Part shown: positions 18,051-52,672 of the stretch, piece by piece
Layout: every line of letters starts with the position of its first letter
How positions within the stretch are numbered: the first letter of the stretch is position 1
NCBI GenBank assembly: GCA_041651575.1
Contig: JBAZJB010000001.1
Span: forward strand, 546,096-610,095
Length of the DNA: 64,000 bases
Origin: Candidatus Nanoarchaeia archaeon
Lineage (GTDB): Archaea; Nanobdellota; Nanobdellia; SCGC-AAA011-G17; JAFCDX01
Reading direction: 5' to 3'
The notes under the pieces: generated by a model
The model's database searches: none
What the model was told of the DNA's origin: nothing
Seen by the model: the letters and a program-made list of their open reading frames with translations, nothing else
Made by a program: the position numbers and the translations under genes

Positions 18051-18635
18051 TTAAGGTCTTACCCAATTTACTTCATAATAAGTGACATCAGATTCTTCAT
18101 CAGCTATACCTAAAAGTAATCTTTTTTTTGTAGAATGAGCTACTCTGTTTTTAGCTGCAAATTCATACCAAGTCATTGTTTCTGATTCATGCACAGGATA
18201 TACTATCCATTTAGCATGTTCATCTCCTGGTTTAACTCCACGATCATAAACTCTGAAATCTGCTCCAAATTTTAAAGCAGTTTTAACAATATATCCACGT
18301 TTTCTTAAATCTCTATAAACACAATATCTTGTCCAAAAATTAGGTTCGAATTTTCTTGCTTTTTTTATAAATTCATTTACCTTCATTTTCTTATCTTTTT
18401 CATAAACATCGAGTCTTTCTCTCTCAATTAAATAAAGAGCTTCGATTAAAGCATATTGGAATCTTCCTTTTTCATTAACTTCTCCAAATCTTGATTTATC
18501 ATACAATTCTCTAGAAACATTATTTTCTTCTGCAAGAACATTTTGTCCTACAAACAAACCTACAAACTTCTCATTAGAAGAGTCTATAATTTCTAATTTA
18601 GTTTCAATTTTCTTAGGTTCTACCTTTTTTATCAT
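18051..18635 (-). CDS. endA: tRNA-splicing endonuclease EndA
   Basis: C-terminal catalytic domain motifs KFGADFRVY and AHSTKK. Likely start is the internal Met (MIKKVEPKK); the ORF extends to 18719. Confidence 0.75.
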   Translation of the reverse strand: MIKKVEPKKIETKLEIIDSSNEKFVGLFVGQNVLAEENNVSRELYDKSRFGEVNEKGRFQYALIEALYLIERERLDVYEKDKKMKVNEFIKKARKFEPNFWTRYCVYRDLRKRGYIVKTALKFGADFRVYDRGVKPGDEHAKWIVYPVHESETMTWYEFAAKNRVAHSTKKRLLLGIADEESDVTYYEVNWVRP

Positions 18636-18696: not shown

Positions 18697-19590
18697 ATGA
18701 AAATCATATTTTTAGGCACTGCAGCAATGCAACCTACAAAGGATAGAAGTTTATTTTCAATTATATTAAATTATAATGAAGAAAGCATTATGATAGATTG
18801 TGGAGAAGGAACTCAAAGGCAAATGAAAATTGCTGGATTAAAACCAACTAAATTAACTAAAATTTTAATTTCACATATGCATGGAGATCACTTATTTGGG
18901 TTACCTGGATTAATGCAATATCTTAGAGCAAATGATTATCAAAAAACTCTTGAAATTTATGGTCCTTCAAAATTAAAAGACTTTTTATCTTGTGTTATTA
19001 AAACAGGAACCATTGAAGAAAATATAAAATATAATATTAATGAAATTAAAGAAGGAATTATTTATTCCGGTAAAGATTTTTCTATAAAAGCCTTGAAATT
19101 AGATCATACTGGAATTTGTTATGGATTCCAATTCATAGAACACGATAAAAGAAAAATAGATTTAAGTTACTTAAAAAAATTTGGATTGAAACAACATCCT
19201 ATTTTAAAAAATTTACAACAAGGAAAAGATATTATTTGGGATGGAAAGAAAATTTCTGCTAATAAAGCAACTAAATTAATTAAAGGTAAAAAAATTGCAT
19301 TTATTTTAGATACAAAACTTTGTAAAAATTGTTATGAATTAGCAAAGGATTCAGATGTTTTAATATCTGAAGCAACTTATCTTGATGAATTAAAAGATAG
19401 AGCAGAATTATACAAACATATGACAGTAAAACAAGTAGCTGAAATAGCTAAAAAAGCAAATATTCAAAAATTAATTTTAACACACTTTTCCCAACGATAT
19501 AAAGATACAAAAGAGCTTGAAAACGAAGCAAAAAAATACTTTAAAAAACAAGTTATTTGTGCAAAAGACTTTTTAGAAATTGAAATTTAA
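18697..19590 (+). CDS. rnz: Ribonuclease Z (tRNA 3'-end processing), metallo-beta-lactamase fold
   Basis: HxHxDH motif (ISHMHGDH), MKIIFLGT start and a C-terminal His; transcribed divergently from endA. Confidence 0.8.
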   Translation: MKIIFLGTAAMQPTKDRSLFSIILNYNEESIMIDCGEGTQRQMKIAGLKPTKLTKILISHMHGDHLFGLPGLMQYLRANDYQKTLEIYGPSKLKDFLSCVIKTGTIEENIKYNINEIKEGIIYSGKDFSIKALKLDHTGICYGFQFIEHDKRKIDLSYLKKFGLKQHPILKNLQQGKDIIWDGKKISANKATKLIKGKKIAFILDTKLCKNCYELAKDSDVLISEATYLDELKDRAELYKHMTVKQVAEIAKKANIQKLILTHFSQRYKDTKELENEAKKYFKKQVICAKDFLEIEI

Positions 19591-23279: not shown

Positions 23280-24007
23280 TTAAGAATTGCTTTAAATTTC
23301 ATTTCTATTAAAATAATTAAAGAAATTATAATTATTAATACTAAAAAAGAGATTAAGATTGGAACTATTAAAAAAGCCAGAGTATAAATTCCTAAGAAGA
23401 AACAAGCAGTTAGATAAGATATTATTAAAAGAATTAAAACAAAATATAATAAAATTAATTTCCAATTTTTTGCTGATTTTAATATATTTTTAATAGAATT
23501 TATATTTAGATAAGATAATAATAAGAAATATGGAAGTATTAATAATATAATTAAATATATTATTGAAAAAATTAATGAAAATTCTGATAATTGGTTAAAT
23601 AACTTTGATAGTATAAAAATTATTATTAAATAAAAAGGAATTGTTATTATTGAAAATCTTAATAGATATTTTTTAAAATTCTTTTCTTTTGAAAGAGTAT
23701 AAAAATTATAGGATTGGAATATACACCAAATTATAAAAAAAGATAAAGGTATGAATATATACCAAAAATATACCATATTTGATATCATTGAATTTAAATC
23801 TGTTAATTGGGTATTTGCTGCTGCTATATTAGAAGTTATATTTTCTTGTAAAGATTGTTGTATATTTTGTATTTGGTAAGAAACTAAAGTTAATTTTTGA
23901 ATATAAGAGGACATTTGTTTTTTTATAAATAAAGAAATTGAGATTAAAAATACTGTAAAAAGTATGTTAATTGTGAATAGTTTTTTGAATTTAGTTTTTT
24001 TAATCAT
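23276..24007 (-). CDS. Polytopic membrane protein, last gene of the giant-protein operon
   Basis: 243 aa with 6-7 TM helices; 4-nt overlap with the upstream giant gene. Confidence 0.5.
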   Translation of the reverse strand: MIKKTKFKKLFTINILFTVFLISISLFIKKQMSSYIQKLTLVSYQIQNIQQSLQENITSNIAAANTQLTDLNSMISNMVYFWYIFIPLSFFIIWCIFQSYNFYTLSKEKNFKKYLLRFSIITIPFYLIIIFILSKLFNQLSEFSLIFSIIYLIILLILPYFLLLSYLNINSIKNILKSAKNWKLILLYFVLILLIISYLTACFFLGIYTLAFLIVPILISFLVLIIIISLIILIEMKFKAILN

Positions 24008-27000
24008 TTTATTAAGGCATTATATGCTCCGATAATTAACCACTTATCTATATCTTTTTTTTCTGTTACTCCAGTTAATGTATTATCTTGTTTTGCAAAA
24101 TTTTTTCTAGTAGTATCATCTCCTTCTTTTTCTATTTGAATAATTCTACAATGTTCATCAGCATTACACATTTTTACTATTTGAGTTATACCATTTTTAA
24201 AATCTTTTGTAAAGGTTATTCTTTTACTATTACCTAAAAATATCCACCCTTGATTTGTATTATAAGTATAACTTTCTAAAACAGTATTTTCAAATGTTCT
24301 AATCAAAATGTTTATTCCTTTCAAAGCAATAGTATTACATCTATTGTCCCTCCAAGTACATTTTTCTTTACATTTAGAGATGCATTCAGATTTTGATAAA
24401 CTATAACAAACATCACATTGATCTAGTGGAGTAATAGGCTTGCATTTATTATTTTCCAAAATACAAGTTTTATCACATTGCATACAAAGAAGTTTAGTTT
24501 CTTCTAAATTATTTAAATCATTAAAACTTTCACACTTTCCACCACAATCACTACAAAAGAAATTATAACTTCCGAAGACACTATAAGTAGCATAGCAATC
24601 TGATCCCTTTTTTTCATTGTTACATTCTTCTTTATCACAAGTGTTTAAAGCACCATTTCCACAATCTGAACATTTAGAAATTAATCCCGGAAGTGTAGTT
24701 GATGCTAAATACTTTACTTCTATGGTGGCGGTATTATCTGTTAATCCTTTTAAATTTAATTGCACTCTTTTATTATATTCCTTACAATATACCTCCACAG
24801 GGGTATCTTTATATAATATTTCTCTTACACTTATACCGGTGAAACAAGTTTTTGGTAAAATTATGCTAGCCGTAGTTGGAATAGGTTCTCCTACTCTTTT
24901 TATTTCTTCAACTATTTCTTGCTCACTATCAGATATTACTGAAAGTTTTCTTTCTTTTGCGGTTGTTGTTCCTATACTCTCTAATTTTATCCAAAATTCT
25001 GGAAAATCTTTTAATATTCCTTTTTGCATTTCTCCTTCTTTAATTGTTATTTTTTGTGTATTTGATAAAACAGTTTGTGTAGCAGGATTATTACATGTAT
25101 TTACCTTCCAAATACAAGGGAATAGACAAGCAGCAGGATCAAAAACTTTTGTACAATCGCTCTCTGTTGTTTCACTTCCTCCTCCACCCTTATTATTTAC
25201 ATTTATGGTTTCTTCCACACATTTCTTCTCTACACATCTAAACCCTTTAAGACATTCGTTAACATTATCTCCGCATTCAACTCTTTCAATAGATGTTTTA
25301 ATTGTATCTCCAAGCAACATATAAATTTCTCCAACTCTTATTTGAGACCATATTTTTATAGAAGTATCTAAAGAATATTGTGATAATTCTACATAATTTA
25401 TTACTGCTTCATTATTTGAAGGAATATCTTTTTCTGTTTTTTCTTTATTAAAACCTTTAAAATCATTTCCAGATAATAAACCAATCAAAATTTCTTTTTT
25501 GCTTTCTAAATTTTTATTTTCTTTAGCAAGACTTAATTTAGATTCTAATTCTGCAAAATAAGCTTTACTTTTTTGTACATCAAATAAACCCGCTAAAATT
25601 TCATTATATTTTGCTGTTCCTTCATCCATTTGTTTCTTATTCAAAGCAAAGGCATTCATTACATCCTCTCTTTTTTCTTTATTTTTTATATCAATTGTCT
25701 TTGTATTTATCCAACAAATACCTAAATCATTTCCAGATTTATCTTTTCCACAAGTACTTCCTGCAATTGGACTCCAATCATTTGCATTGGTTCCAGAACC
25801 AGGATTTATAGTAGAACAAGTTCTTACAATTCCAGTACTTATTGCACCATATTCTTCTGGTAAAACTACACTTCCCAAACTCGTACTTAAGGTAGGAGAA
25901 TCAGGAACACATTGTTTTTGAGAAGTTATTTTTCTAGCTGCTTCGTTTTGTACAATCTCATCATTTAATGCATTCAAAGCATAATTGGTAGTTACTTTTC
26001 CAAATCCACATTCTGTACTTCCACTTATAGAAACACAAATTTTAGTCATTCCAGGTTTATCAAATACTTTATTATTTTTATCAGCATATTTTCCATATTC
26101 AATTATTTCATAAGCAGATCCTCTCTGTTCTGAAGTTACTGGTATAGAATATCCTTGATCATCCACCAAATAAACAGCATATTTTACTCCTTTTGAATTT
26201 ACTCCTGTTCTTAATGCTTCAGGAATACTTCCTGCATATATGTGGAAATAAACATTATACAAAGACATTTCTTGTAAATTTCCTAGTTTATTTGTTCCAG
26301 TTGAAGGAATATTTCCTGCTTCTGTTATATAAGGAGATTCATCAAATTCAGCATAAAATTGTGGAGGATTTTCTGGCTCAGAAATTTGATCTAATAAACT
26401 TCCTACTTCGGCAAACTTTCCAAATATTGCAGCCTTACAAATTTTTGTACCAAATTCTTGTGTGCTCATTGCATTATAAGCACTAAATGCACTTGAGGCA
26501 TATTCTTTTGTAAAGTAATTAACCATATTAGAGGTTGTTTCCATATTTGTAGTAAAGTCTAAATATTCAGAACCTCCAGAATTTATTCCAAACATTTTTT
26601 CTGAAATAAAGTTTATCAATCCTCCCTGCATATTAAAAGTATTAATTATTTCTTTCCATAATAATTCACATATTCCTAAGGATCTTATTTTATCACAAAT
26701 TCCGATATTTTCATGATTTATTTTTGAAGTATGTAGACATTGAACAAATCCTTCTAACAAAGACCTTATACTTTTTAATCCAGCAGAAATTCCAGGCAAG
26801 CAAATAGGTAAAGGGGTTTCTGGATAATTTGGCATTCCTAAAACCAATGAACCAATAATTCCTGTTTCTACAACACTTCCAGAAACTTCATAATTGCCTC
26901 CTAAATTAAATCTTGAATTAGGACACATTACAGGATCACAAACTGCAAACAAAGTCTTACAATCATCTGGATCCATAAAATCTTGACAATTTGCATTTGT

Positions 27001-30000
27001 ACTTGATTGTGCTAATTTATATCCTTGCATACTACACAAGAAAGGTCTATTTGTATTTGGATTTAAAGAACCCATTAAAGAACCTCCTTCTGTACAAGTA
27101 CTTGATTTATATTTTGCTACCAAGTTTTGACACAATCCCTTTGTATCTTCTCTGGTATTGATTACATCTTTTCCTGCAATTAATCTATCTTCTCCAGAAC
27201 AAAGTAATCCATCTGCTCCAACATTCCAATATTCACAATCATTAGGAGTTCCATATTCATACCAACTTAATATTTTTACAAAATTACCATTAGAACCTGT
27301 TGGAAGACAGAAAGGTTTTCCTTTTTCTATAAATTCTGCTTTTGCATTTTGAGCATATTTATCATTTAATCCAGAATCAGCCGATTTTAATGATTGAAGT
27401 GCAATTATATATTTATCATCCTTAGTAGTATCTTTATAAACATTATATCCTTGGAATTTCCATTCAGAGTCTAAACATGTTTTTTTAGTTGATTCAGAAG
27501 AACATATTATATTTTTAACATTTTCCGGTGCATCACTTACCTTAAGTAATTTATAAGTTCCAGAATCTGTTATTGTTACTTTTCCAGTAGTGGAATCTAT
27601 ATTTGTAGAATAAGTAGTTGCGGTAATTCCAGTCTCAATATTAGTTTCAGATACTAAAGGTTCTATTTTTACATTTTTAGCATCTATCCCGAATTCGTTA
27701 TTAAATTGATTAATATATCTCTTTTCATCCTCAGGACTGATTTTAGCATTTGTATCTAAAACTCCCAATGCCAGGTTGTATAAATATTGGAATCTGCTAG
27801 TTGCTTCTGTTTTTTTATTTGCAGATAATTCATTAAAATTTGTTGTTCCTATATTAGATTTCTCATATGCTGCATCATATGCATTTAATTTATTTTTAAT
27901 AGAATTTTTTGCATCATCACATTTATCTTCTCTATATTCATCTATTCCTAAATTTTCATTTTTCATATCCACACAATAAAATTGATAATCTAAAAATTGA
28001 GCTTTATCAACAGGATTTGCTATTAAAGCATTTTTATTTAATTCTGCTGCATTTTCAATTATTTTTTTATTTTCATCATTATCATAAAGGTCAATTCCAC
28101 TTAAACAAGAATTATCTTTTGAAGTAAGGCAATCATTTCTTTTACCTACCAAACCTTCTGCAACATTTAATGTAGATTCAATTTCATCAGCTTTATCAGT
28201 AAGACATTGACTCATTGTTTTTTTCTCAGGACTGCTTAAAATTTCTTTCTTACATTCATCATTATACATCGGCATTACTTCTTTTCTTGCTAAGGCTCTA
28301 TCTGCTGCACCTGCAGTAAAAGCATTTTTAACAATTAATAAACCATAAGTAACCATACATACATTCTTCCAAACTTTTATTATATCATCAAGTTGTTTTA
28401 TAAATTTACTAAGTTGGTCTATTTGTTTTTGAGTTGCATTTATCATTTTATCAATCTGTTCTGGAGTCCATTCTATCATTCTTTTATCTACACCTAAATG
28501 AACTTGGAAATTTGAAGTAGAATATGCTTCTCCTGTTCCAGGATAAACTGTAACATATGCTCTTTTCTTTGAATTTATTTTTTTAAGAGAAATATCCACT
28601 ATAGAATTTTGTACTGGTTTTCCATCGGTCCCTATATCTTTATAAATTGTAGTTGCTTTTCCAGGATTAATATATACTGTTTGTTCAGAAACCTCTGAGG
28701 TTACACCTAAGGTGGATTTTGTCTGACGTTTTCTGGATAAATAAACTGTATTACTATCTATTTTATCTATATACCAAATTAATTTCTCTCCTACAGAATT
28801 AAATTGATAACTTGTTCCATCAAGTATAGATATAGGTTCTCCTTCTCTATAAATACCTGATACTCCTCCAATAGTTAATTCTGCAGTAGATTTATCTGCT
28901 TCAGCCACAGGAATTATATCTACTAAACTGACAAATGCTCCTTCATCTTCTAAATAAACCATCTCTGATTTTGAATTTGTATAAAGATCATTTTTTAATT
29001 GGGCTATTTTTGTTGTAATTTCATTTGTCTGTTCTGCATGGCCATAATAATAAATTGCTATTTTTTTTGCATTAAATGAATCTGTATTTACAGGAAGTAT
29101 ATCTGACAATCTTTCATAATTTTGTCCAATTAAATCATAAGCATAATAAGTATATTTTTGATTATCTCCTGCATCTTTTATTGAGTCTTTTAATTTTTGT
29201 ATAGAAGTACAATATAATTTCATTGCATTATCATTATCATTTTTATCGTTATTACTTTTAACTAAATCATTTAAAGTTGGAGTTTCTTGTAATATATTTT
29301 TATCACAAAGATTATTTTCTATTCCTTCAACTTGAACTTTATCAGATAAAATAAGAGTTTCTGTCTCTCCTGTAGCTTTATCATTATATGTTCTATATAA
29401 AATTTTTATATCTCCATAAGAATTTCTTATTATTACTTGTTGAGTTGTTAATTTTTGAGCACTTCCTGCAGATACACATTTTCCACTATAACACGTTAAT
29501 CCACTTGGACAATTAGCATCAGTCTTACAACTTATTTCAGTAGTATCATTAGAAATTGAATCTATTATCCAATTTGAACCAGAATAAATTTTCATTCCTC
29601 TTGCAATTGTTTTTGTAGTTTGTTCTCCATTAACTGTAACTTTTAGCTGAGCAGTATCTTCTGGTTCACTTACTTCATTTAATTTTAAAGTAAACCTATC
29701 ATTAAAAAATGAAGAAGAACCAGGTAAAGACATTGTTCTTGAATCTCCTTTGGTTAAAACAACAATTCCTCTTCTTTCTAATTCACTTGCGTCTCCAATT
29801 CCCAATAATCCAAAACCAGAACCATAAACTTGTATATAGGCCCTATTCCCTTCAATTTTAGTAACTCTCAAATAACCTTTTCCATTCCAAAAAGAATTTG
29901 AAATAGAATCTGTTTTTTTCCAATCCTCTTCAACAGAAGATTCTTTTAAAATTAAATCCTGTGCAGATACATCTCCAAAACCTCTATTAAAATCAAAATA

Positions 30001-30510
30001 TAATTTTAAAGTTAAATTTAAATCTATTTTTTCTGGAACTTTTGTCTCATCTTTTACTTGTTTTAATAATAAATAAATATATCCCATATTATCTAAACTT
30101 CTTGCATAAGTTTGTGGCATTATAAATTGTGGTTGAGAAGCTAAATATTCTGTAGAACCAGAAACAGAAACGTACCCTGATTTTATTATTGGTTGTCCTA
30201 TAAATGGTTCGGATTCAGGAGAATTTTCTTGCATAAATAAAGAACCCAATGTACTTCCTTCAAGATAAACAACAACAGGAACATTTCTTGATTCTATAAG
30301 TGAAGAAGCAATTACTGGAGGTTGATAGTTTACTACATTAACAATTATAGCTTCTCCTAAATCTTGATTATCTAAATTATTTTCAATTGCAGAAGTTGGG
30401 AAAGTTGGATTTATAGTCATATCTTCTACAGAATAAACAGAAGCAGGAACAATCAAAATAGTTATCACTATCATAAACATTGCTATTATTATTTTATTTA
30501 TTTCTTTCAT
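24004..30510 (-). CDS. Giant secreted Cys-rich surface protein (2168 aa)
   Basis: N-terminal signal/TM segment; many Cys clusters (EGF-like CxxxxC spacing, especially in the C-terminal 400 aa); sequon-rich. No known catalytic motif found. Confidence 0.6.
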   Translation of the reverse strand: MKEINKIIIAMFMIVITILIVPASVYSVEDMTINPTFPTSAIENNLDNQDLGEAIIVNVVNYQPPVIASSLIESRNVPVVVYLEGSTLGSLFMQENSPESEPFIGQPIIKSGYVSVSGSTEYLASQPQFIMPQTYARSLDNMGYIYLLLKQVKDETKVPEKIDLNLTLKLYFDFNRGFGDVSAQDLILKESSVEEDWKKTDSISNSFWNGKGYLRVTKIEGNRAYIQVYGSGFGLLGIGDASELERRGIVVLTKGDSRTMSLPGSSSFFNDRFTLKLNEVSEPEDTAQLKVTVNGEQTTKTIARGMKIYSGSNWIIDSISNDTTEISCKTDANCPSGLTCYSGKCVSAGSAQKLTTQQVIIRNSYGDIKILYRTYNDKATGETETLILSDKVQVEGIENNLCDKNILQETPTLNDLVKSNNDKNDNDNAMKLYCTSIQKLKDSIKDAGDNQKYTYYAYDLIGQNYERLSDILPVNTDSFNAKKIAIYYYGHAEQTNEITTKIAQLKNDLYTNSKSEMVYLEDEGAFVSLVDIIPVAEADKSTAELTIGGVSGIYREGEPISILDGTSYQFNSVGEKLIWYIDKIDSNTVYLSRKRQTKSTLGVTSEVSEQTVYINPGKATTIYKDIGTDGKPVQNSIVDISLKKINSKKRAYVTVYPGTGEAYSTSNFQVHLGVDKRMIEWTPEQIDKMINATQKQIDQLSKFIKQLDDIIKVWKNVCMVTYGLLIVKNAFTAGAADRALARKEVMPMYNDECKKEILSSPEKKTMSQCLTDKADEIESTLNVAEGLVGKRNDCLTSKDNSCLSGIDLYDNDENKKIIENAAELNKNALIANPVDKAQFLDYQFYCVDMKNENLGIDEYREDKCDDAKNSIKNKLNAYDAAYEKSNIGTTNFNELSANKKTEATSRFQYLYNLALGVLDTNAKISPEDEKRYINQFNNEFGIDAKNVKIEPLVSETNIETGITATTYSTNIDSTTGKVTITDSGTYKLLKVSDAPENVKNIICSSESTKKTCLDSEWKFQGYNVYKDTTKDDKYIIALQSLKSADSGLNDKYAQNAKAEFIEKGKPFCLPTGSNGNFVKILSWYEYGTPNDCEYWNVGADGLLCSGEDRLIAGKDVINTREDTKGLCQNLVAKYKSSTCTEGGSLMGSLNPNTNRPFLCSMQGYKLAQSSTNANCQDFMDPDDCKTLFAVCDPVMCPNSRFNLGGNYEVSGSVVETGIIGSLVLGMPNYPETPLPICLPGISAGLKSIRSLLEGFVQCLHTSKINHENIGICDKIRSLGICELLWKEIINTFNMQGGLINFISEKMFGINSGGSEYLDFTTNMETTSNMVNYFTKEYASSAFSAYNAMSTQEFGTKICKAAIFGKFAEVGSLLDQISEPENPPQFYAEFDESPYITEAGNIPSTGTNKLGNLQEMSLYNVYFHIYAGSIPEALRTGVNSKGVKYAVYLVDDQGYSIPVTSEQRGSAYEIIEYGKYADKNNKVFDKPGMTKICVSISGSTECGFGKVTTNYALNALNDEIVQNEAARKITSQKQCVPDSPTLSTSLGSVVLPEEYGAISTGIVRTCSTINPGSGTNANDWSPIAGSTCGKDKSGNDLGICWINTKTIDIKNKEKREDVMNAFALNKKQMDEGTAKYNEILAGLFDVQKSKAYFAELESKLSLAKENKNLESKKEILIGLLSGNDFKGFNKEKTEKDIPSNNEAVINYVELSQYSLDTSIKIWSQIRVGEIYMLLGDTIKTSIERVECGDNVNECLKGFRCVEKKCVEETINVNNKGGGGSETTESDCTKVFDPAACLFPCIWKVNTCNNPATQTVLSNTQKITIKEGEMQKGILKDFPEFWIKLESIGTTTAKERKLSVISDSEQEIVEEIKRVGEPIPTTASIILPKTCFTGISVREILYKDTPVEVYCKEYNKRVQLNLKGLTDNTATIEVKYLASTTLPGLISKCSDCGNGALNTCDKEECNNEKKGSDCYATYSVFGSYNFFCSDCGGKCESFNDLNNLEETKLLCMQCDKTCILENNKCKPITPLDQCDVCYSLSKSECISKCKEKCTWRDNRCNTIALKGINILIRTFENTVLESYTYNTNQGWIFLGNSKRITFTKDFKNGITQIVKMCNADEHCRIIQIEKEGDDTTRKNFAKQDNTLTGVTEKKDIDKWLIIGAYNALIK

Positions 30511-30511
30511 T

Positions 30512-32536
30512 TTATTCTGGATATCTAAACATAGGTAAACCTGCGTTTTCCTGTATTGAATTATAAATGATATTCATATTTTCCTGGGTTGAAGGTATTT
30601 GATCAACAATAGTATAAAAGTTCATTACATTTTTCTCTGCAATTTGTTCTCTTTCCAAATCAAATTCAAATTCTGCTCCACCCTTTATTGCTTGCTCTAC
30701 AATTATATCTTCAATTTTTACAGAATAACATTTTTCTTCTTCTCCAAACAAGTTCCAAATTGCTGGCTTTGATACTTTTACACATTTATTTATTTCTCCC
30801 CCTTGTAGTTTTATTGGCCAAGTACTACTTCCCATAATATAAGATTTAACTTCATATCTTCCTGGAATTAAATCAATTTGTGCAGCAGGTTCTTTTATTG
30901 AATAAGCAAAAGAAGCTGTAAAATCATTATCCATATTTTTCAATTCAAAAATAACAGTTTCAGATTCATAAGGATCTCTTACTTGCCCAGTACTTTTTTC
31001 TATTAATTTAACTGTAGGAGTTATTTTATAGATAGGTTCTAAGATTAATGAAATACTTTTTTCTTCGTTTGTAGATACTATTTGTTTTGCTTTGTAATAA
31101 CCTTCTTTTTCTCCAATTATTGCTCCATTAATACAAGAAGGGAATAATCCAGATAAGTAAGCTCCTTCATCTGTCATTTTTATATCACATTGTGTAGTAA
31201 AGCATTTGAATTTTATATTTGTTTCTGGAAGAGGAATCATATTTCCATAATTATCTGAAGCAAAAGTATAAACATCTATTTTTGTTGAAGGATTTTTACA
31301 TATTCTCGATTCAAATTCTGGTTGATCATAAGTTCCATAAATATTTTTCTTTGGTTGATTATTATCAATTATAACTTGCGAAGCAAATTGGAAAGTATAA
31401 CCTTCTCCATCCAAAGCAGCTGTATCTGTTAAAATAACTAAAATAGGATATTTTAAATCATAAATAAAATGATAATTATAAATGCACATTAAATAAGCAA
31501 TTGGTCCTGCATATTCGCTTAATTTCTCGGTAAGAGAAGTTCCCTGCATCAAATCTCCGTCACTTGGATAAACATCTACAATTGTAGGCCAAGTATTTGA
31601 ATACATAAAATTTATATCCAAATTTGCAGCGCTTGTTTTTGGATCCAACATAAAATAAGAAGCGTCTTGGTTTACTGAAGAAAACTTCGAACCTTTAACA
31701 AGATAAGCAGGAGTATTAATTGATAAAGCATCTTTTATATTATTTGTAACTTCTTGCTTTGACCAGAATTTAGGTTTACAATCAAAATCGGTTCCAGAAA
31801 AAGGAATATTTTCATAAGCAACTAACATATCAATAGTTTTTTCTTCAAAGAAATTTAATTCTTGTTGTTTCATAATACCGGAAGAAACCTTATACATTTT
31901 TCCTAAAGGAACGTCTAATTTTGCTTGATGCTCTTTCAAATTAAAATTAAAATCTTTTAAAGTAAATGAAACAGGCATTTCTAAATTAATTAAAACAGAA
32001 TTATCTAAAATAGAAACATCATATTTTCTTTCAGTAGTTACTATGAAAGAATATCCTTGATTAGTAAGTCCTTCCAATCCACTTATACATTCTGCCATAT
32101 TATTAGCAACATATTCTCCAATCTCTTTTTCCATAGATTCAATAGTTGGAATTTGTTCTTGTTGTATTCCATTTGAAGTTTCATAAAACCAATAAGCTGT
32201 TTTCAATCCAGGAAAAGATTCTAATTTATTTGAAAAAGGAGTTACAGGTGTAACTGGAAGATTATCCACTGGAATTTGTATATAGCCTCCTTGAATACCC
32301 ATTGTAACTATTGCTTTTTTTGCAAGTTCATAAACACAAGAATCAATATACTCTTTTACAGGAACAGCTTGATCTGGCACAGTTCCGGCCTTTAAAATAT
32401 TAGTGTCTGTTCTACTTTGAATAAAATATTGTCTTACAAAAAAGGCAGAAATAATTATCAATAATATAATAAAACCCAAGATTATATAAATCGTTACCTG
32501 GCCCCTTTTTTCCATATAAATACTATTAAAAGTCAA
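30512..32536 (-). CDS. Large extracellular protein with pilin-like class III signal peptide (674 aa)
   Basis: N-terminus MEKRGQ/VTIYIILGFIILLIIISAFF fits the archaeal prepilin (FlaK/PibD) motif. The true start may be the internal Met at 32515. Ends 1 nt before the giant gene. Confidence 0.55.
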   Translation of the reverse strand: MTFNSIYMEKRGQVTIYIILGFIILLIIISAFFVRQYFIQSRTDTNILKAGTVPDQAVPVKEYIDSCVYELAKKAIVTMGIQGGYIQIPVDNLPVTPVTPFSNKLESFPGLKTAYWFYETSNGIQQEQIPTIESMEKEIGEYVANNMAECISGLEGLTNQGYSFIVTTERKYDVSILDNSVLINLEMPVSFTLKDFNFNLKEHQAKLDVPLGKMYKVSSGIMKQQELNFFEEKTIDMLVAYENIPFSGTDFDCKPKFWSKQEVTNNIKDALSINTPAYLVKGSKFSSVNQDASYFMLDPKTSAANLDINFMYSNTWPTIVDVYPSDGDLMQGTSLTEKLSEYAGPIAYLMCIYNYHFIYDLKYPILVILTDTAALDGEGYTFQFASQVIIDNNQPKKNIYGTYDQPEFESRICKNPSTKIDVYTFASDNYGNMIPLPETNIKFKCFTTQCDIKMTDEGAYLSGLFPSCINGAIIGEKEGYYKAKQIVSTNEEKSISLILEPIYKITPTVKLIEKSTGQVRDPYESETVIFELKNMDNDFTASFAYSIKEPAAQIDLIPGRYEVKSYIMGSSTWPIKLQGGEINKCVKVSKPAIWNLFGEEEKCYSVKIEDIIVEQAIKGGAEFEFDLEREQIAEKNVMNFYTIVDQIPSTQENMNIIYNSIQENAGLPMFRYPE

Positions 32537-32587: not shown

Positions 32588-33781
32588 ATGAAAAACAAAC
32601 CAGAATTATTAAGTCCTGTATCTGACTTTACAAGTCTTACTTCTGCTATAAAATCTGGTTGTAATGCTATATATTTTGGTGTAAAAGAACTAAATATGAG
32701 AATAACTGCAAATAATTTTAAATTAAATGAATTAAAAAAAGTTGTGGATATATGCCACAAAAATAAAGTCAAGGCTTATCTAACTTTAAACACAATAATC
32801 TATAATAATGAATTAAATAAAATTAAAAAAATATTAAAAACTGCTAAAAAAGCAAAAATAGATGCAATAATTTGTTGGGATTTTTCTGTTATACAAGAAG
32901 TTAAAAAATTAAAATTACCTTTTCATATAAGTACACAAGCTTCTGTTTCAAATATAGAATCTGCTAAATTTTATAAAAGTCTTGGAGCTGAAAGAATTAT
33001 TTTAGCTAGAGAATTGAGTTTAGAACAAATAAAAGAAATAAAGAAAAAAGTAAATATTCAGGTTGAATGTTTTATTCATGGTGCAATGTGTGTTGCATTA
33101 TCTGGAAGATGTTTTACAAGCCAATTTGTTTTTGGAAGATCTGCAAATCGTGGTGATTGCTTACAACCTTGCAGAAGAAATTACATTGTTAAAGATAAAA
33201 GAATTGGTTATGAATTAGAACTAGAAAATGATGCTGTTTTAAGTCCAAAAGATTTGTGCACTTTACCTTTTATAGAAAAATTAATTGAATCTGGAATAAA
33301 CTCTTTTAAAATTGAAGGACGTGCAAGAAGCCCAGATTATGTTTCTACTGTTACAAAAGTTTATAGAAAAGCTATTGATGCTTATTTTGAAAATAAATTA
33401 ACAAATAATTTGAAACAAGAATTAATTTCTGAATTAAAAATAGTTTATAATAGAGATTTTAGTTCTGGATTTTACTTAGGTAAACCAATAAATGAATTTA
33501 CAAGTCCAGATAATCAAGCAACAAGAAAAAAAGTCCAAATTGGAATAATAAAAAATTATTATAAAAATATAAACGTGGCTGAAATAAAATTATTAACAAG
33601 AGATTTAAAATTAAACGATTTAATTATGATTCAAGGTCCAACAACAGGAGTAATAGAACAAAAAGTAAACTCTATGGAATTAAACAATAAAAAAATTGAT
33701 ATTGGAAAGAAAGGAACAATTATTGGAATTAAAATTAATAACTTAGTAAGAAAAAACGATAAAGTTTTCTTGATAATTTAG
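32588..33781 (+). CDS. Peptidase U32-family protein (RlhA/TrhP-like RNA hydroxylation family)
   Basis: U32 motifs: TIM-barrel N-domain, E-x-F-x-H-G-A-x-C and the Cys cluster CFTSQ...GDCLQPCRR. Confidence 0.8.
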   Translation: MKNKPELLSPVSDFTSLTSAIKSGCNAIYFGVKELNMRITANNFKLNELKKVVDICHKNKVKAYLTLNTIIYNNELNKIKKILKTAKKAKIDAIICWDFSVIQEVKKLKLPFHISTQASVSNIESAKFYKSLGAERIILARELSLEQIKEIKKKVNIQVECFIHGAMCVALSGRCFTSQFVFGRSANRGDCLQPCRRNYIVKDKRIGYELELENDAVLSPKDLCTLPFIEKLIESGINSFKIEGRARSPDYVSTVTKVYRKAIDAYFENKLTNNLKQELISELKIVYNRDFSSGFYLGKPINEFTSPDNQATRKKVQIGIIKNYYKNINVAEIKLLTRDLKLNDLIMIQGPTTGVIEQKVNSMELNNKKIDIGKKGTIIGIKINNLVRKNDKVFLII

Positions 33782-33853
33782 TGGACCCAAAGGGAATCGA
33801 ACCCTTGATCTTCGCTAAGTCAAAGCGACGTCGTACCACTAGACTATGGGTCC
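33782..33853 (-). tRNA. tRNA-Val (anticodon GAC)
   Basis: Reverse-complement fold: acceptor GGACCCA/TGGGTCC, anticodon stem TCGCT/AGCGA with loop TTGACTT, T-arm AAGGG-TTCGATT-CCCTT. Confidence 0.7.
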
Positions 33854-33867
33854 TTAAAATAAAAATG

Positions 33868-33939
33868 AGCCTCAGGGGAGAGTTGAACTCCCGACCTGCT
33901 GATTACAAGTCAGCTGCTCCACCACTGAGCTACTGAGGC
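33868..33939 (-). tRNA. tRNA-Thr (anticodon TGT)
   Basis: Acceptor GCCTCAG/CTGAGGC, D-arm GCTC-AGTGGTG-GAGC, anticodon loop CTTGTAA, T-arm GGGAG-TTCAACT-CTCCC, discriminator U. Confidence 0.75.
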
Positions 33940-36509: not shown

Positions 36510-36645
36510 TTTGTATTTTAACCGAGAATAAGCTTAGTTTAATGGTATAAACAAGCCGTAACCGGTCTATCCTAATTTCATTGCTTTTAACTTATTTATA
36601 AAGGTTTGTATAGCCCTAGGAGGATTCGAACCTCCGTCAGAAGAT

Positions 36646-36658
36646 TTCTTTTCGAAAT
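36646..36658 (-). other. Putative canonical (37/38) tRNA intron, 13 nt
   Basis: Intron ATTTCGAAAAGAA. Removing it gives anticodon loop CTTTGGA. Both splice sites fall 2 nt into 3-nt bulges separated by a 4-bp helix. Confidence 0.55.
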
Positions 36659-36674
36659 CCAAAGTCTCCTATCC

Positions 36675-36695
36675 CTAGCCTTGGTTTTAACCAAT
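36675..36695 (-). other. Putative non-canonical D-loop tRNA intron, 21 nt
   Basis: Intron ATTGGTTAAAACCAAGGCTAG. Bulges AAA and AGG flank the 4-bp helix GGCC/GGCT. The intron's own 4-bp stem is TTGG/CCAA with loop TTAAAA. The remaining D-arm is GTCT-AGTGGCCAA-GGAT. Confidence 0.45.
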
Positions 36696-36754
36696 TTGGC
36701 CACTAGACTATAGGGCTGTATAAAGATTGAGAACTAAAGCTTTTAAAAAACTTT

Positions 36755-51991: not shown

Positions 51992-52672
51992 ATGATAACT
52001 TACAAAAATCTGACTTTAATTGGTACTTCACATATTGCTATACAAAGTGTAAACCAAGTTAGAACTTTAATTCAAGAAGAAAAACCAGAGATTGTAGCTT
52101 TAGAACTAGATAAACCTAGATTTGAAGCTTTAATGTCAAGAAAAAAATATAAATTAAGATTAAGAGATATTAACAGATTTGGATTAAAAGGATTCTTATT
52201 TAATTTTTTTGGAGCACTTGCAGAAAAAAAACTTGGAAATTTAGTTGGAAGCAAACCTGGAACTGAAATGAGGGTAGCTACAGAAGAAGCAAGAGCAATA
52301 AATGCAAAAATTGCTTTAATAGACCAAGATATCTCTATTACTTTAAGAAGATTATCTCAAAAATTAACTTGGAAAGAAAAATTTAGATTTATAATAGATA
52401 TTATAAAAAGTTTATTTGTTAAAGAGAGGATAAATTTTGATTTAAAAAAAGTTCCAAGTCAAAAAATTATAGATAAATTAACAAAAACAGTTAAAAAAAG
52501 ATATCCAAATTTCTATTTAGTTCTTGTAGATGAAAGAAATAAGTACATGGCAAAAAATTTATATAATCTAATGCAACAAGATAATAAGATAATTGCGGTT
52601 GTTGGTGCAGGTCACGAACAAGAAATAATTAGTGAAATTAAAAAATGGGAATATTTAGTAAAAAAGAGGTAA
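51992..52672 (+). CDS. TraB/PrgY-family protein
   Basis: N-terminal GTSHIA motif, conserved E...RN and a C-terminal GAGH motif. Confidence 0.6.
   Translation: MITYKNLTLIGTSHIAIQSVNQVRTLIQEEKPEIVALELDKPRFEALMSRKKYKLRLRDINRFGLKGFLFNFFGALAEKKLGNLVGSKPGTEMRVATEEARAINAKIALIDQDISITLRRLSQKLTWKEKFRFIIDIIKSLFVKERINFDLKKVPSQKIIDKLTKTVKKRYPNFYLVLVDERNKYMAKNLYNLMQQDNKIIAVVGAGHEQEIISEIKKWEYLVKKR

Follow-up and report, generated by a model that had tools for sequence, protein, structure and literature searches.

Disrupted tRNA genes are known from the DPANN archaea, the ultrasmall archaea to which the Nanoarchaeia belong. Split tRNAs have been described in Nanoarchaeum equitans and noncanonical introns in ARMAN-2 (PMC3239211), and a DPANN survey that included Woesearchaeota and Pacearchaeota linked alpha4-type tRNA-splicing endonucleases (EndA) to increased tRNA gene disruption (PMC5829648); for one Woesearchaeota and one Pacearchaeota genome, Kaneta et al. 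noted incomplete tRNA sets that suggest undetected disrupted genes (PMC5829648). Outside this group, the pre-tRNA-Glu(UUC) of Methanopyrus kandleri carries an HBh′-type intron at position 20b/21 in the D-loop (Kaneta et al. 2018, PMC5829648), the pre-tRNA-Thr(UGU) of Aeropyrum pernix has a D-loop intron (Hirata et al. 2011, PMC3241643), and multi-intron tRNA genes are familiar from Thermoproteales/Crenarchaeota (Sugahara 2007/2008; reviewed in PMC4090602 and PMC4033280). Genes with two or three introns are documented mostly in Crenarchaeota and Nanoarchaeota, and noncanonical introns have been found at 20/21, 22/23, 25/26, 29/30, 30/31, 45/46, 53/54, 56/57, 59/60, and 3/4 (PMC4090602, PMC8450103). 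The stretch analyzed here, 64 kb of contig JBAZJB010000001.1 (positions 546,096 to 610,095 of the forward strand, referred to as the window), contains a tRNA-Gln(UUG) locus on its minus strand that is very probably a functional gene with two introns, the splicing of which we infer.

The gene runs from 36717 to 36611, comprises 107 nt in three exons and two introns, and reads in order AGCCCTATAGTCTAGTGGCCAA (exon 1), ATTGGTTAAAACCAAGGCTAG (intron 1), GGATAGGAGACTTTGG (exon 2), ATTTCGAAAAGAA (intron 2), and ATCTTCTGACGGAGGTTCGAATCCTCCTAGGGCTA (exon 3). Its features are listed by window coordinates.

36611..36717, minus strand: tRNA-Gln(UUG) gene, no encoded CCA; called by ARAGORN in the spliced form and matched by covariance model R1.
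36696..36717, minus strand: exon 1 (pre-tRNA 1-22), with the acceptor 5′ strand, U8 and A9, the D-stem 5′ strand GUCU, and the D-loop AGUGGCCAA.
36675..36695, minus strand: intron 1 (pre-tRNA 23-43), 21 nt, at position 21/22, the D-loop/D-stem junction; predicted HBh′ type.
36659..36674, minus strand: exon 2 (pre-tRNA 44-59), with the D-stem 3′ strand GGAU, A26, the anticodon-stem 5′ strand GGAGA, and the loop CUUUGG.
36660-36662, minus strand: anticodon UUG, in exon 2.
36646..36658, minus strand: intron 2 (pre-tRNA 60-72), 13 nt, at the canonical position 37/38; predicted hBH type.
36611..36645, minus strand: exon 3 (pre-tRNA 73-107), with A38, the anticodon-stem 3′ strand, the T-arm, the acceptor 3′ strand, and discriminator A73.
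36741..36750, minus strand: TATA-box-like TTTTTTAAAA, immediately behind the stop codon of YdjM and 24-33 nt upstream of the first tRNA nucleotide.

An initial annotation, made from the letters of the window alone, had described a tRNA-Gln with a perfect 7-bp acceptor stem, A1:U72, and a canonical T-arm that is interrupted by two inserts, and this observation was confirmed. The acceptor stem (AGCCCTA/TAGGGCT, perfect over 7 bp with A1:U72 and discriminator A) and the T-arm (GGAGG-TTCGAAT-CCTCC) are both present, each of the two inserts occurs once, at pre-tRNA 23-43 and 60-72, and double excision leaves the predicted 73-nt cloverleaf with loop CUUUGGA, called tRNA-Gln(ttg) by ARAGORN with all arms paired and anticodon loop CTTTGGA. 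The first insert, which had been assigned to the D-loop, was verified as such and its position corrected to 21/22, the boundary between D-loop and D-stem.

The spliced form has a 7-bp acceptor stem, a 4-bp D-stem, 5-bp anticodon and T-stems, a variable loop of 4 nt (UGAC, in exon 3), and a 7-nt anticodon loop with U33 and a purine at 37, together with the core bases U8, A14, G18 and G19, the T-loop UUCRAAU, and G53:C61. All columns that are invariant across an alignment of 32 relatives are matched, and A1, U72, and A73, present here, are common to 32/32 of them. In archaea, A1:U72 together with discriminator A73 is the tRNA-Gln signature and serves as a tRNA-Gln identity feature for GatDE. Glutamine codons in 13 long open reading frames (ORFs) are 222 CAA versus 25 CAG, and the UUG anticodon is needed because CAA predominates so strongly in the ORFs counted. 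The window has a GC content of 27% and includes archaeal genes for S15, S3Ae, RecJ/GAN, RPA, TFB, RNase Z, and EndA; the nearest relatives of its tRNA-Gln and S15 are metagenome-assembled genomes (MAGs) of Woese-, Pace- and Nanoarchaeota, and the host is an uncultured, AT-rich DPANN archaeon of the Nanoarchaeia/Woesearchaeota type. The S15 and EndA proteins are encoded on the ENA contig ERZ27247363 k141_170452, and the EndA protein is NCBI MFA5176262.1.

The splice junctions were analyzed by homology, profile scoring, and covariance-model alignment. When a genome collection was scanned with the 3′ part of the tRNA, about 50 DPANN tRNA-Gln genes were obtained, most of them intron-free 73-mers, while the exact 3′ half of the tRNA was found at only three loci in the metagenomes scanned. 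The consensus D-arm of the intron-free genes is GTCT-AGYGGYCAA-GGAY, which the spliced D-arm of the window gene, GTCT-AGTGGCCAA-GGAT, matches. In a syntenic relative with 65% identical S15 (L123/L131/L132), the first 26 nt of tRNA-Gln, AGCCCTATAGTCTAGTGGCCAAGGAT, are identical, the D-loop intron is missing, and a different intron of 16 nt occupies 37/38; relatives in general have other introns or none at 37/38. The covariance model R1 and alignment A1 were made from only the 32 intron-free relatives, and R1 was run without filters. On the unspliced locus, R1 matched 36619-36708 of the minus strand; the score was 28.8 bits, with an E-value of 5e-6 for a search of 96 kb. The alignment contains exactly two long inserts, one following GUCUAGUGGCCA (22 residues) and one following CUUUGG (14 residues). 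Each replaces one model position and thus leaves 21 and 13 extra residues, as predicted. The profile of the same relatives gave 64.4 bits for the spliced sequence, 55.4 with only the D intron removed, 50.5 with only the 37/38 intron removed, and 41.4 for the precursor, and the chosen D junction scored best of 25 shifted variants. The exact junctions are established by these three independent approaches, and the predicted two-intron structure of the locus is supported.

The cutting rule used for an intron a..b places a 4-bp helix H between a 5′ bulge of two exon bases and one intron base and a 3′ bulge of two intron bases and one exon base. At the D-loop intron of the window (21/22), H is GGCC/GGCU with 4/4 pairs, the 5′ bulge is AA↓A and the 3′ bulge AG↓G (arrows mark exon-intron junctions), h′ comprises 5 bp (UUGGU/ACCAA), and h is one G·U pair. 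At the 37/38 intron, H is CUUU/AAAG with 4/4 pairs, the bulges are GG↓A and AA↓A, h′ is 1 bp closing UUCG, and h is the anticodon stem, given as 7 bp. The minimum-energy fold of the D region contained the same hairpin and AAA bulge, with the 3′ site in a small internal loop beside the D-stem, and the D-intron hairpin was more stable than 500/500 shuffles (z = -3.4). A strict bulge-helix-bulge (BHB) conformer for the D-intron 3′ site, formed through an alternative outer helix, was tried and rejected as about 9 kcal/mol worse. The strict form hBHBh′ was not found at either intron of the window, h being the single G·U pair at the D intron and h′ the single base pair at 37/38. The motifs are relaxed because the D-intron 3′ site and the 37/38 5′ site are each without two good flanking helices, and the predicted introns are of the relaxed types HBh′ (D-loop) and hBH (37/38). 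These types are a recognised subclass of BHB motifs (PMC4090602). The BHB rule had also been invoked in the initial annotation, and its cuts, 2 nt into 3-nt bulges beside 4-bp helices, were upheld; the motifs are relaxed and do not form a strict BHB.

The same rule was compared with introns of related genomes, the junctions of which were fixed independently by homology. The sister genome GCA_028716945.1 (L137) has a 96% identical S15 and colinear flanking DNA that is 80-90% identical. The tRNA-Thr(UGU) and tRNA-Val(GAC) genes of the window (33781-33939) are intron-free, and their sister orthologues (L137:12570-12774) are intron-bearing: a 20-nt D-loop intron at 15/16 in tRNA-Val (GTCTAG↓AATCTTAAAAAGATGGACAA↓TGG) and, in tRNA-Thr, two introns, one of 14 nt at 30/31 and one of 13 nt at 37/38. 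When cut by the rule, the sister tRNA-Val is identical to the intron-free tRNA-Val of the window at 72/72 positions, and the sister tRNA-Thr is identical to the window gene except for a pair-preserving difference in the T-arm. In these two genes, introns were gained or lost between genomes whose DNA is 80-90% identical.

A further relative, with 68% identical S15 (L126-L129), has a 118-nt tRNA-Gln(UUG) at the same RPA-YdjM-tRNA-S15 position (L126:1788-1905, likewise in L127-L129), with a 23-nt intron at 15/16, a 22-nt intron at 22/23, and none at 37/38. Both D-arm introns obey the rule and their excision restores the consensus; ARAGORN finds nothing there. For the second of them (intron B), the register GA↓A…TA↓A was rejected with its 11-nt D-loop, and the register with H = GCCA/UGGU restores the consensus. 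The two introns of L126 (A and B), the one in the sister tRNA-Val, the two in the sister tRNA-Thr, and that of L131 make six in relatives, and with the two of the window, eight of eight introns at five positions in this small clade fit the rule; for the second intron of the sister tRNA-Thr, it was checked by hand on the sequence and not by script. That one rule holds at all eight homology-fixed introns is the strongest argument that the inserts are EndA substrates. The more distant S15 neighbors P0011, P0026, P0004, and P0019 showed lost synteny or an intron-free tRNA-Gln, and no D-loop introns were found in them.

The tRNA-Gln of the sister genome (L137:7914-8020) is the same 107-nt gene with both introns present. 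None of the 34 intron positions differs (0/34), and at roughly 15% divergence we estimate the chance of zero intron changes at <1%. The six exon differences amount to three pair-preserving changes, U6:A67 to C6:G67 and, in the T-stem, G49:C65 and G50:C64 to C:G. The upstream A/T box GAAAGTTTTTTAAAA is kept, while the surrounding 60 nt are only 48/60 identical; similar A/T boxes occur upstream of the other tRNAs of the window, and TTTTTTAAAA is the putative archaeal promoter of tRNA-Gln. The block tRNA-Gln-S15-RecJ/GAN is kept in many relatives and is preceded in the window by RPA and YdjM.

Exactly at the tRNA-Gln 3′ end, the sister genome has a 1.9-kb insertion (L137:8021-9907, corresponding to window 36603-36610) with genes for a 322-aa helix-turn-helix protein and a 239-aa unknown protein. 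An 11-mer within it, TAGGGCTATAC (L137:9770-9780), matches the tRNA 3′ end and flank of the window and appears to be left over from an integration into the tRNA gene. In another genome, Pacearchaeota UBA73 (L031:2003-2135), a tRNA-Gln(CUG) is followed after about 35 nt by the 3′ end of a second tRNA-Gln, GGTTCGAATCCTGGTAGGGCTA, that has no 5′ half to match; this looks like the duplication of an attachment (att) site. A 287-aa ORF with a faint match to LAGLIDADG_3 lies between YdjM and tRNA-Gln in L131/L132:772-1635 and was seen in this relative only.

Two genes for tRNA-processing enzymes are encoded in the window.

18051..18635, minus strand: tRNA-splicing endonuclease EndA, 194 aa, Pfam PF02778 and PF01974, TIGR00324.
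18697..19590, plus strand: RNase Z for tRNA 3′-end processing, TIGR02651 at 316 bits, above the cutoff.

They are divergently transcribed neighbors about 60 nt apart. The EndA gene had been placed at these coordinates in the initial annotation, in agreement with Pfam and with TIGR00324 (125 bits, cutoff 59.6). The protein has N and C domains, an intact Tyr/His/Lys catalytic triad, and a single subunit of the alpha type; its best solved relatives are the N. equitans alpha subunit 3iey_A (1e-40) and the Methanocaldococcus jannaschii enzyme 1a79 (2e-32). Its alignment to the homotetrameric 1a79 is full-length, keeps the triad, and shows no insertion across 171 aligned residues. The stretch from Tyr to His is YDRGVKPGDEH, compared with YDIGVIPKKGKRSEREH in N. 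equitans, and the loop between them has 8 residues (DRGVKPGD) versus 14, the six extra Lys-rich residues being missing. This short loop with a conserved RGxKPG, and thus one conserved Lys (KPG), is common to all 120 closest EndA homologues. An acidic L10-like loop, ADEESD in the window enzyme, is present in 12/12 inspected C termini and is shortened in the N. equitans alpha subunit. No EndA paralogue or beta subunit was found in the 64-kb window; the only weak EndA-like match, at 51992-52672 (E 0.003), was rejected as a probable TraB-type protein, judged by eye from sequence motifs. RtcB was not found among the large window ORFs checked.

From these features, we infer an alpha4-like, one-subunit enzyme without the Lys-rich insertion of the N. 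equitans type, which is probably the loop named L3 in PMC5829648. In published work, tRNA gene disruption goes along with the presence of the EndA loops L1-L3 (PMC5829648, PMC6379350, PMC3239211), and loop-less alpha4/alpha′2 enzymes are reported to prefer strict BHB motifs and handle relaxed ones poorly (PMC5829648, PMC6379350). The mismatch between relaxed introns and a probably loop-less EndA is notable, not contradictory; the host of the loop-less M. kandleri EndA splices a D-loop HBh′ intron in vivo.

Detection of the locus by tRNA finders was analyzed in the window and in relatives. The initial annotation had expected default scans to miss or miscall it, and this was borne out for ARAGORN and Rfam. 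Five tRNAs were called in the 64-kb window by ARAGORN in default mode, the two-intron tRNA-Gln not among them, and Rfam at the gathering threshold gave the same five and nothing at 36611-36717; in E-value mode, RF00005 scored the unspliced locus at 21.9 bits against a cutoff of 29 bits, with a wrong alignment. Both tools also missed the gene in the sister genome. Perfect T-arm motifs number six in the window, the five called tRNAs and the tRNA-Gln locus, and the search of the window by this motif revealed no hidden tRNA beyond these six. A tRNA-Leu(caa) called by the ARAGORN intron search after removal of one intron was rejected as an artifact. The intron models of tRNAscan-SE 2 were trained on Cren- and Euryarchaeota and Thaumarchaeota (PMC8450103). 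A one-intron tRNA-Gln(UUG) in a relative (L131:1726-1817) was labeled tRNA-Lys(ctt) by ARAGORN because of its short 37/38 intron. Another 110-nt gene missed by ARAGORN, in a Woesearchaeota MAG (L061:3095-3204), appears to be a tRNA-Glu(CUC) with a 16-nt D-loop intron (about 20b/21) and a 19-nt intron at 37/38, isotype and junctions having been parsed by eye.

In the explanation that we regard as very probable, the 107-nt precursor would be transcribed from the A/T-box promoter 24-33 nt upstream. The 21-nt intron between A21 and G22 would fold as a 4-bp helix, an AAA bulge, and a 5-bp hairpin (HBh′), and the 13-nt intron at 37/38 would pair with anticodon-loop bases 32-35 (hBH). EndA, probably as a homotetramer, would cleave each of the four bulges behind its second base, the three exons would be joined by an RtcB-type ligase encoded outside the window, and RNase P and RNase Z would trim the ends before CCA is added. 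The predicted product is a 73-nt tRNA reading CAA, by far the main Gln codon.

Several points weigh against this explanation. In the stable conformer, the 3′ site of the D intron is part of an internal loop, and the strict conformer is about 9 kcal/mol worse; the 37/38 intron has only a 1-bp h′ at its 5′ site. The intron helices are without covariation support, the sole other copy being identical, and EndA is without the Lys-rich insertion, while loop-less enzymes reportedly handle relaxed motifs poorly. Part of the 3′-exon differences in the sister genome may stem from recombination with the inserted element and not from stepwise compensation, and a second intact tRNA-Gln(UUG) or a second EndA subunit may lie outside the 64-kb window.

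That such a working copy exists elsewhere and the locus is a decaying pseudogene, a tRNA-Gln disabled by two insertions, would agree with its rejection by default finders and with the window being a fraction of the genome. We consider this improbable: both inserts are placed exactly for clean 4-bp-helix/bulge excision to the clade consensus, the sister genome keeps them unchanged despite 10-20% divergence of the flanks, with all exon changes preserving pairing, and the promoter box is conserved at a locus that is itself the conserved syntenic site of tRNA-Gln. Equally slight is the probability that only the 37/38 intron is removed and the 21-nt D-loop hairpin is retained as an expansion in the mature tRNA. 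The insert is a self-contained hairpin, its 3′ site is relaxed, and EndA is without the known specificity insertion; retention, however, would move A21 away from the D-stem and upset the core formed by D-loop and T-loop, and helix H is made of G18, G19, and the intron. In addition, the same design occurs in relatives at 15/16, 21/22, and 22/23, with the consensus always restored by the rule, one such case has an intron-free and otherwise identical gene in the sister species, and M. kandleri, the EndA of which likewise has no specificity loop, splices D-loop HBh′ introns in vivo (PMC5829648).

A single-intron fold that explains the locus better, named in the initial annotation as one of the cases that would count against two introns, was sought with ARAGORN -i, which reported only a malformed tRNA-Pro(agg) with a 20-nt intron. 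This call, in which a 3-position D-stem has only 2 pairs marked, was rejected as an artifact, and a one-intron gene of this or another identity is highly improbable. Besides having so few D-stem pairs, the fold has an anticodon stem with mismatches, and its extra arm is very long. It takes no account of the similarity to tRNA-Gln of relatives and is rejected by R1 and the profile scores, and a tRNA-Pro(UGG) is already present at 2205-2280. An assembly artifact or chimera, conceivable for a metagenome assembly, was rejected with a comparably negligible probability, the same 107-nt architecture being found in an independent NCBI MAG of a different species. The two-intron tRNA-Gln(UUG) gene is the preferred explanation.

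Beside the locus, a stretch of about 75 nt that precedes rps15 (36510-36590, minus strand, in the gap separating the tRNA from the start of S15) is much better conserved than the sequence around it. The region consists of a TTTATAAATA box followed by AGGATARACCGGTTAAGGCTTGTTTATACC…TTCTCGGTT and is kept where S15 is only 55-68% identical, even with a different upstream gene. According to RNAalifold, it can form a hairpin of 11 bp in which two pairs covary, one changing from A-U to G-C (4 sequences) and the other from C-G to U-A (2 sequences). The region is a candidate structured S15 leader, possibly autoregulatory. Two minus-strand ORFs, of 2168 aa (24004-30510) and 674 aa (30512-32536), have orthologues of similar size in the sister genome; the 674-aa ORF gave no Pfam match.

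If the window gene is read as proposed, the probable tRNA for the main Gln codon CAA is dropped or mislabeled by routine annotation, and statements on completeness and "missing tRNAs" of DPANN genomes are therefore biased. The locus would also be a clean, comparatively dated case of noncanonical intron gain or loss outside Crenarchaeota, and its pairing with an EndA without the broad-specificity insertion makes the link between enzyme loop and relaxed substrate directly testable. A more speculative idea, which we hold to be possible and rather unlikely, is that the genus is in rapid intron turnover, with minimal relaxed cassettes of 13-23 nt and a one-subunit alpha4-like EndA without the three specificity loops. 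Turnover may affect D-loops (15/16, 21/22, and 22/23), anticodon stems (30/31), and 37/38 among species only 10-20% diverged, and the D-loop cassettes may have a common design: A, then a short hairpin whose loop resembles TTAAAA, then an exon-complementary stretch of 4 nt, and finally AA/AG. If true, the co-evolution model in which a specificity loop enables tRNA gene disruption needs revising, and this small-genome clade would be a natural system for studying the gain of BHB introns.

Multi-intron archaeal tRNAs are a known kind, to which the window locus adds a further example, and position 21/22 adjoins reported intron sites. The view in the initial annotation that multi-intron tRNAs with D-loop introns are known from only a few archaeal lineages needs correction, as D-loop introns and multi-intron tRNAs already have records in several. 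In comparison to M. kandleri pre-tRNA-Glu, the likeness lies in a short HBh′ intron toward the 3′ side of the D-loop and an EndA without L1, L2, or L3. The two cases differ in isoacceptor, in lineage (DPANN versus Euryarchaeota), in position (21/22 versus 20b/21), in the extra 37/38 intron of the window gene, and in the enzyme, which is (alpha-beta)2 in M. kandleri and alpha4-like in the window; the mature tRNA is made in vivo in M. kandleri, whereas splicing of the window tRNA-Gln is predicted from its sequence. Thermoproteales/Crenarchaeota resemble the clade in having genes with two or three BHB-type introns, both at the canonical site and at noncanonical ones (20/21, 22/23, 25/26, 30/31, and others), in their relaxed hBH/HBh′ motifs, in the speed at which related species gain and lose introns, and in the evasion of simple finders. 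In contrast to them, the clade has very A/T-rich introns at the lower end of the size range (13-23 nt), its host is a DPANN archaeon of the mesophilic type with 27% GC, and its EndA differs from the (alpha-beta)2 enzyme with a Crenarchaea-specific loop. In A. pernix, as proposed for the window gene, EndA removes a D-loop intron, and cleavage at a nonstandard position was shown biochemically; the A. pernix enzyme needs Lys44 of the Crenarchaea-specific loop, which is not seen in the window EndA. N. equitans and ARMAN-2 belong to the same superphylum as the window host, and the nearest solved EndA homologue is the N. equitans alpha subunit; the window tRNA-Gln is not split or permuted, and the window EndA and its 120 closest homologues are without the Lys-rich C-domain insertion of N. 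equitans and ARMAN-2.

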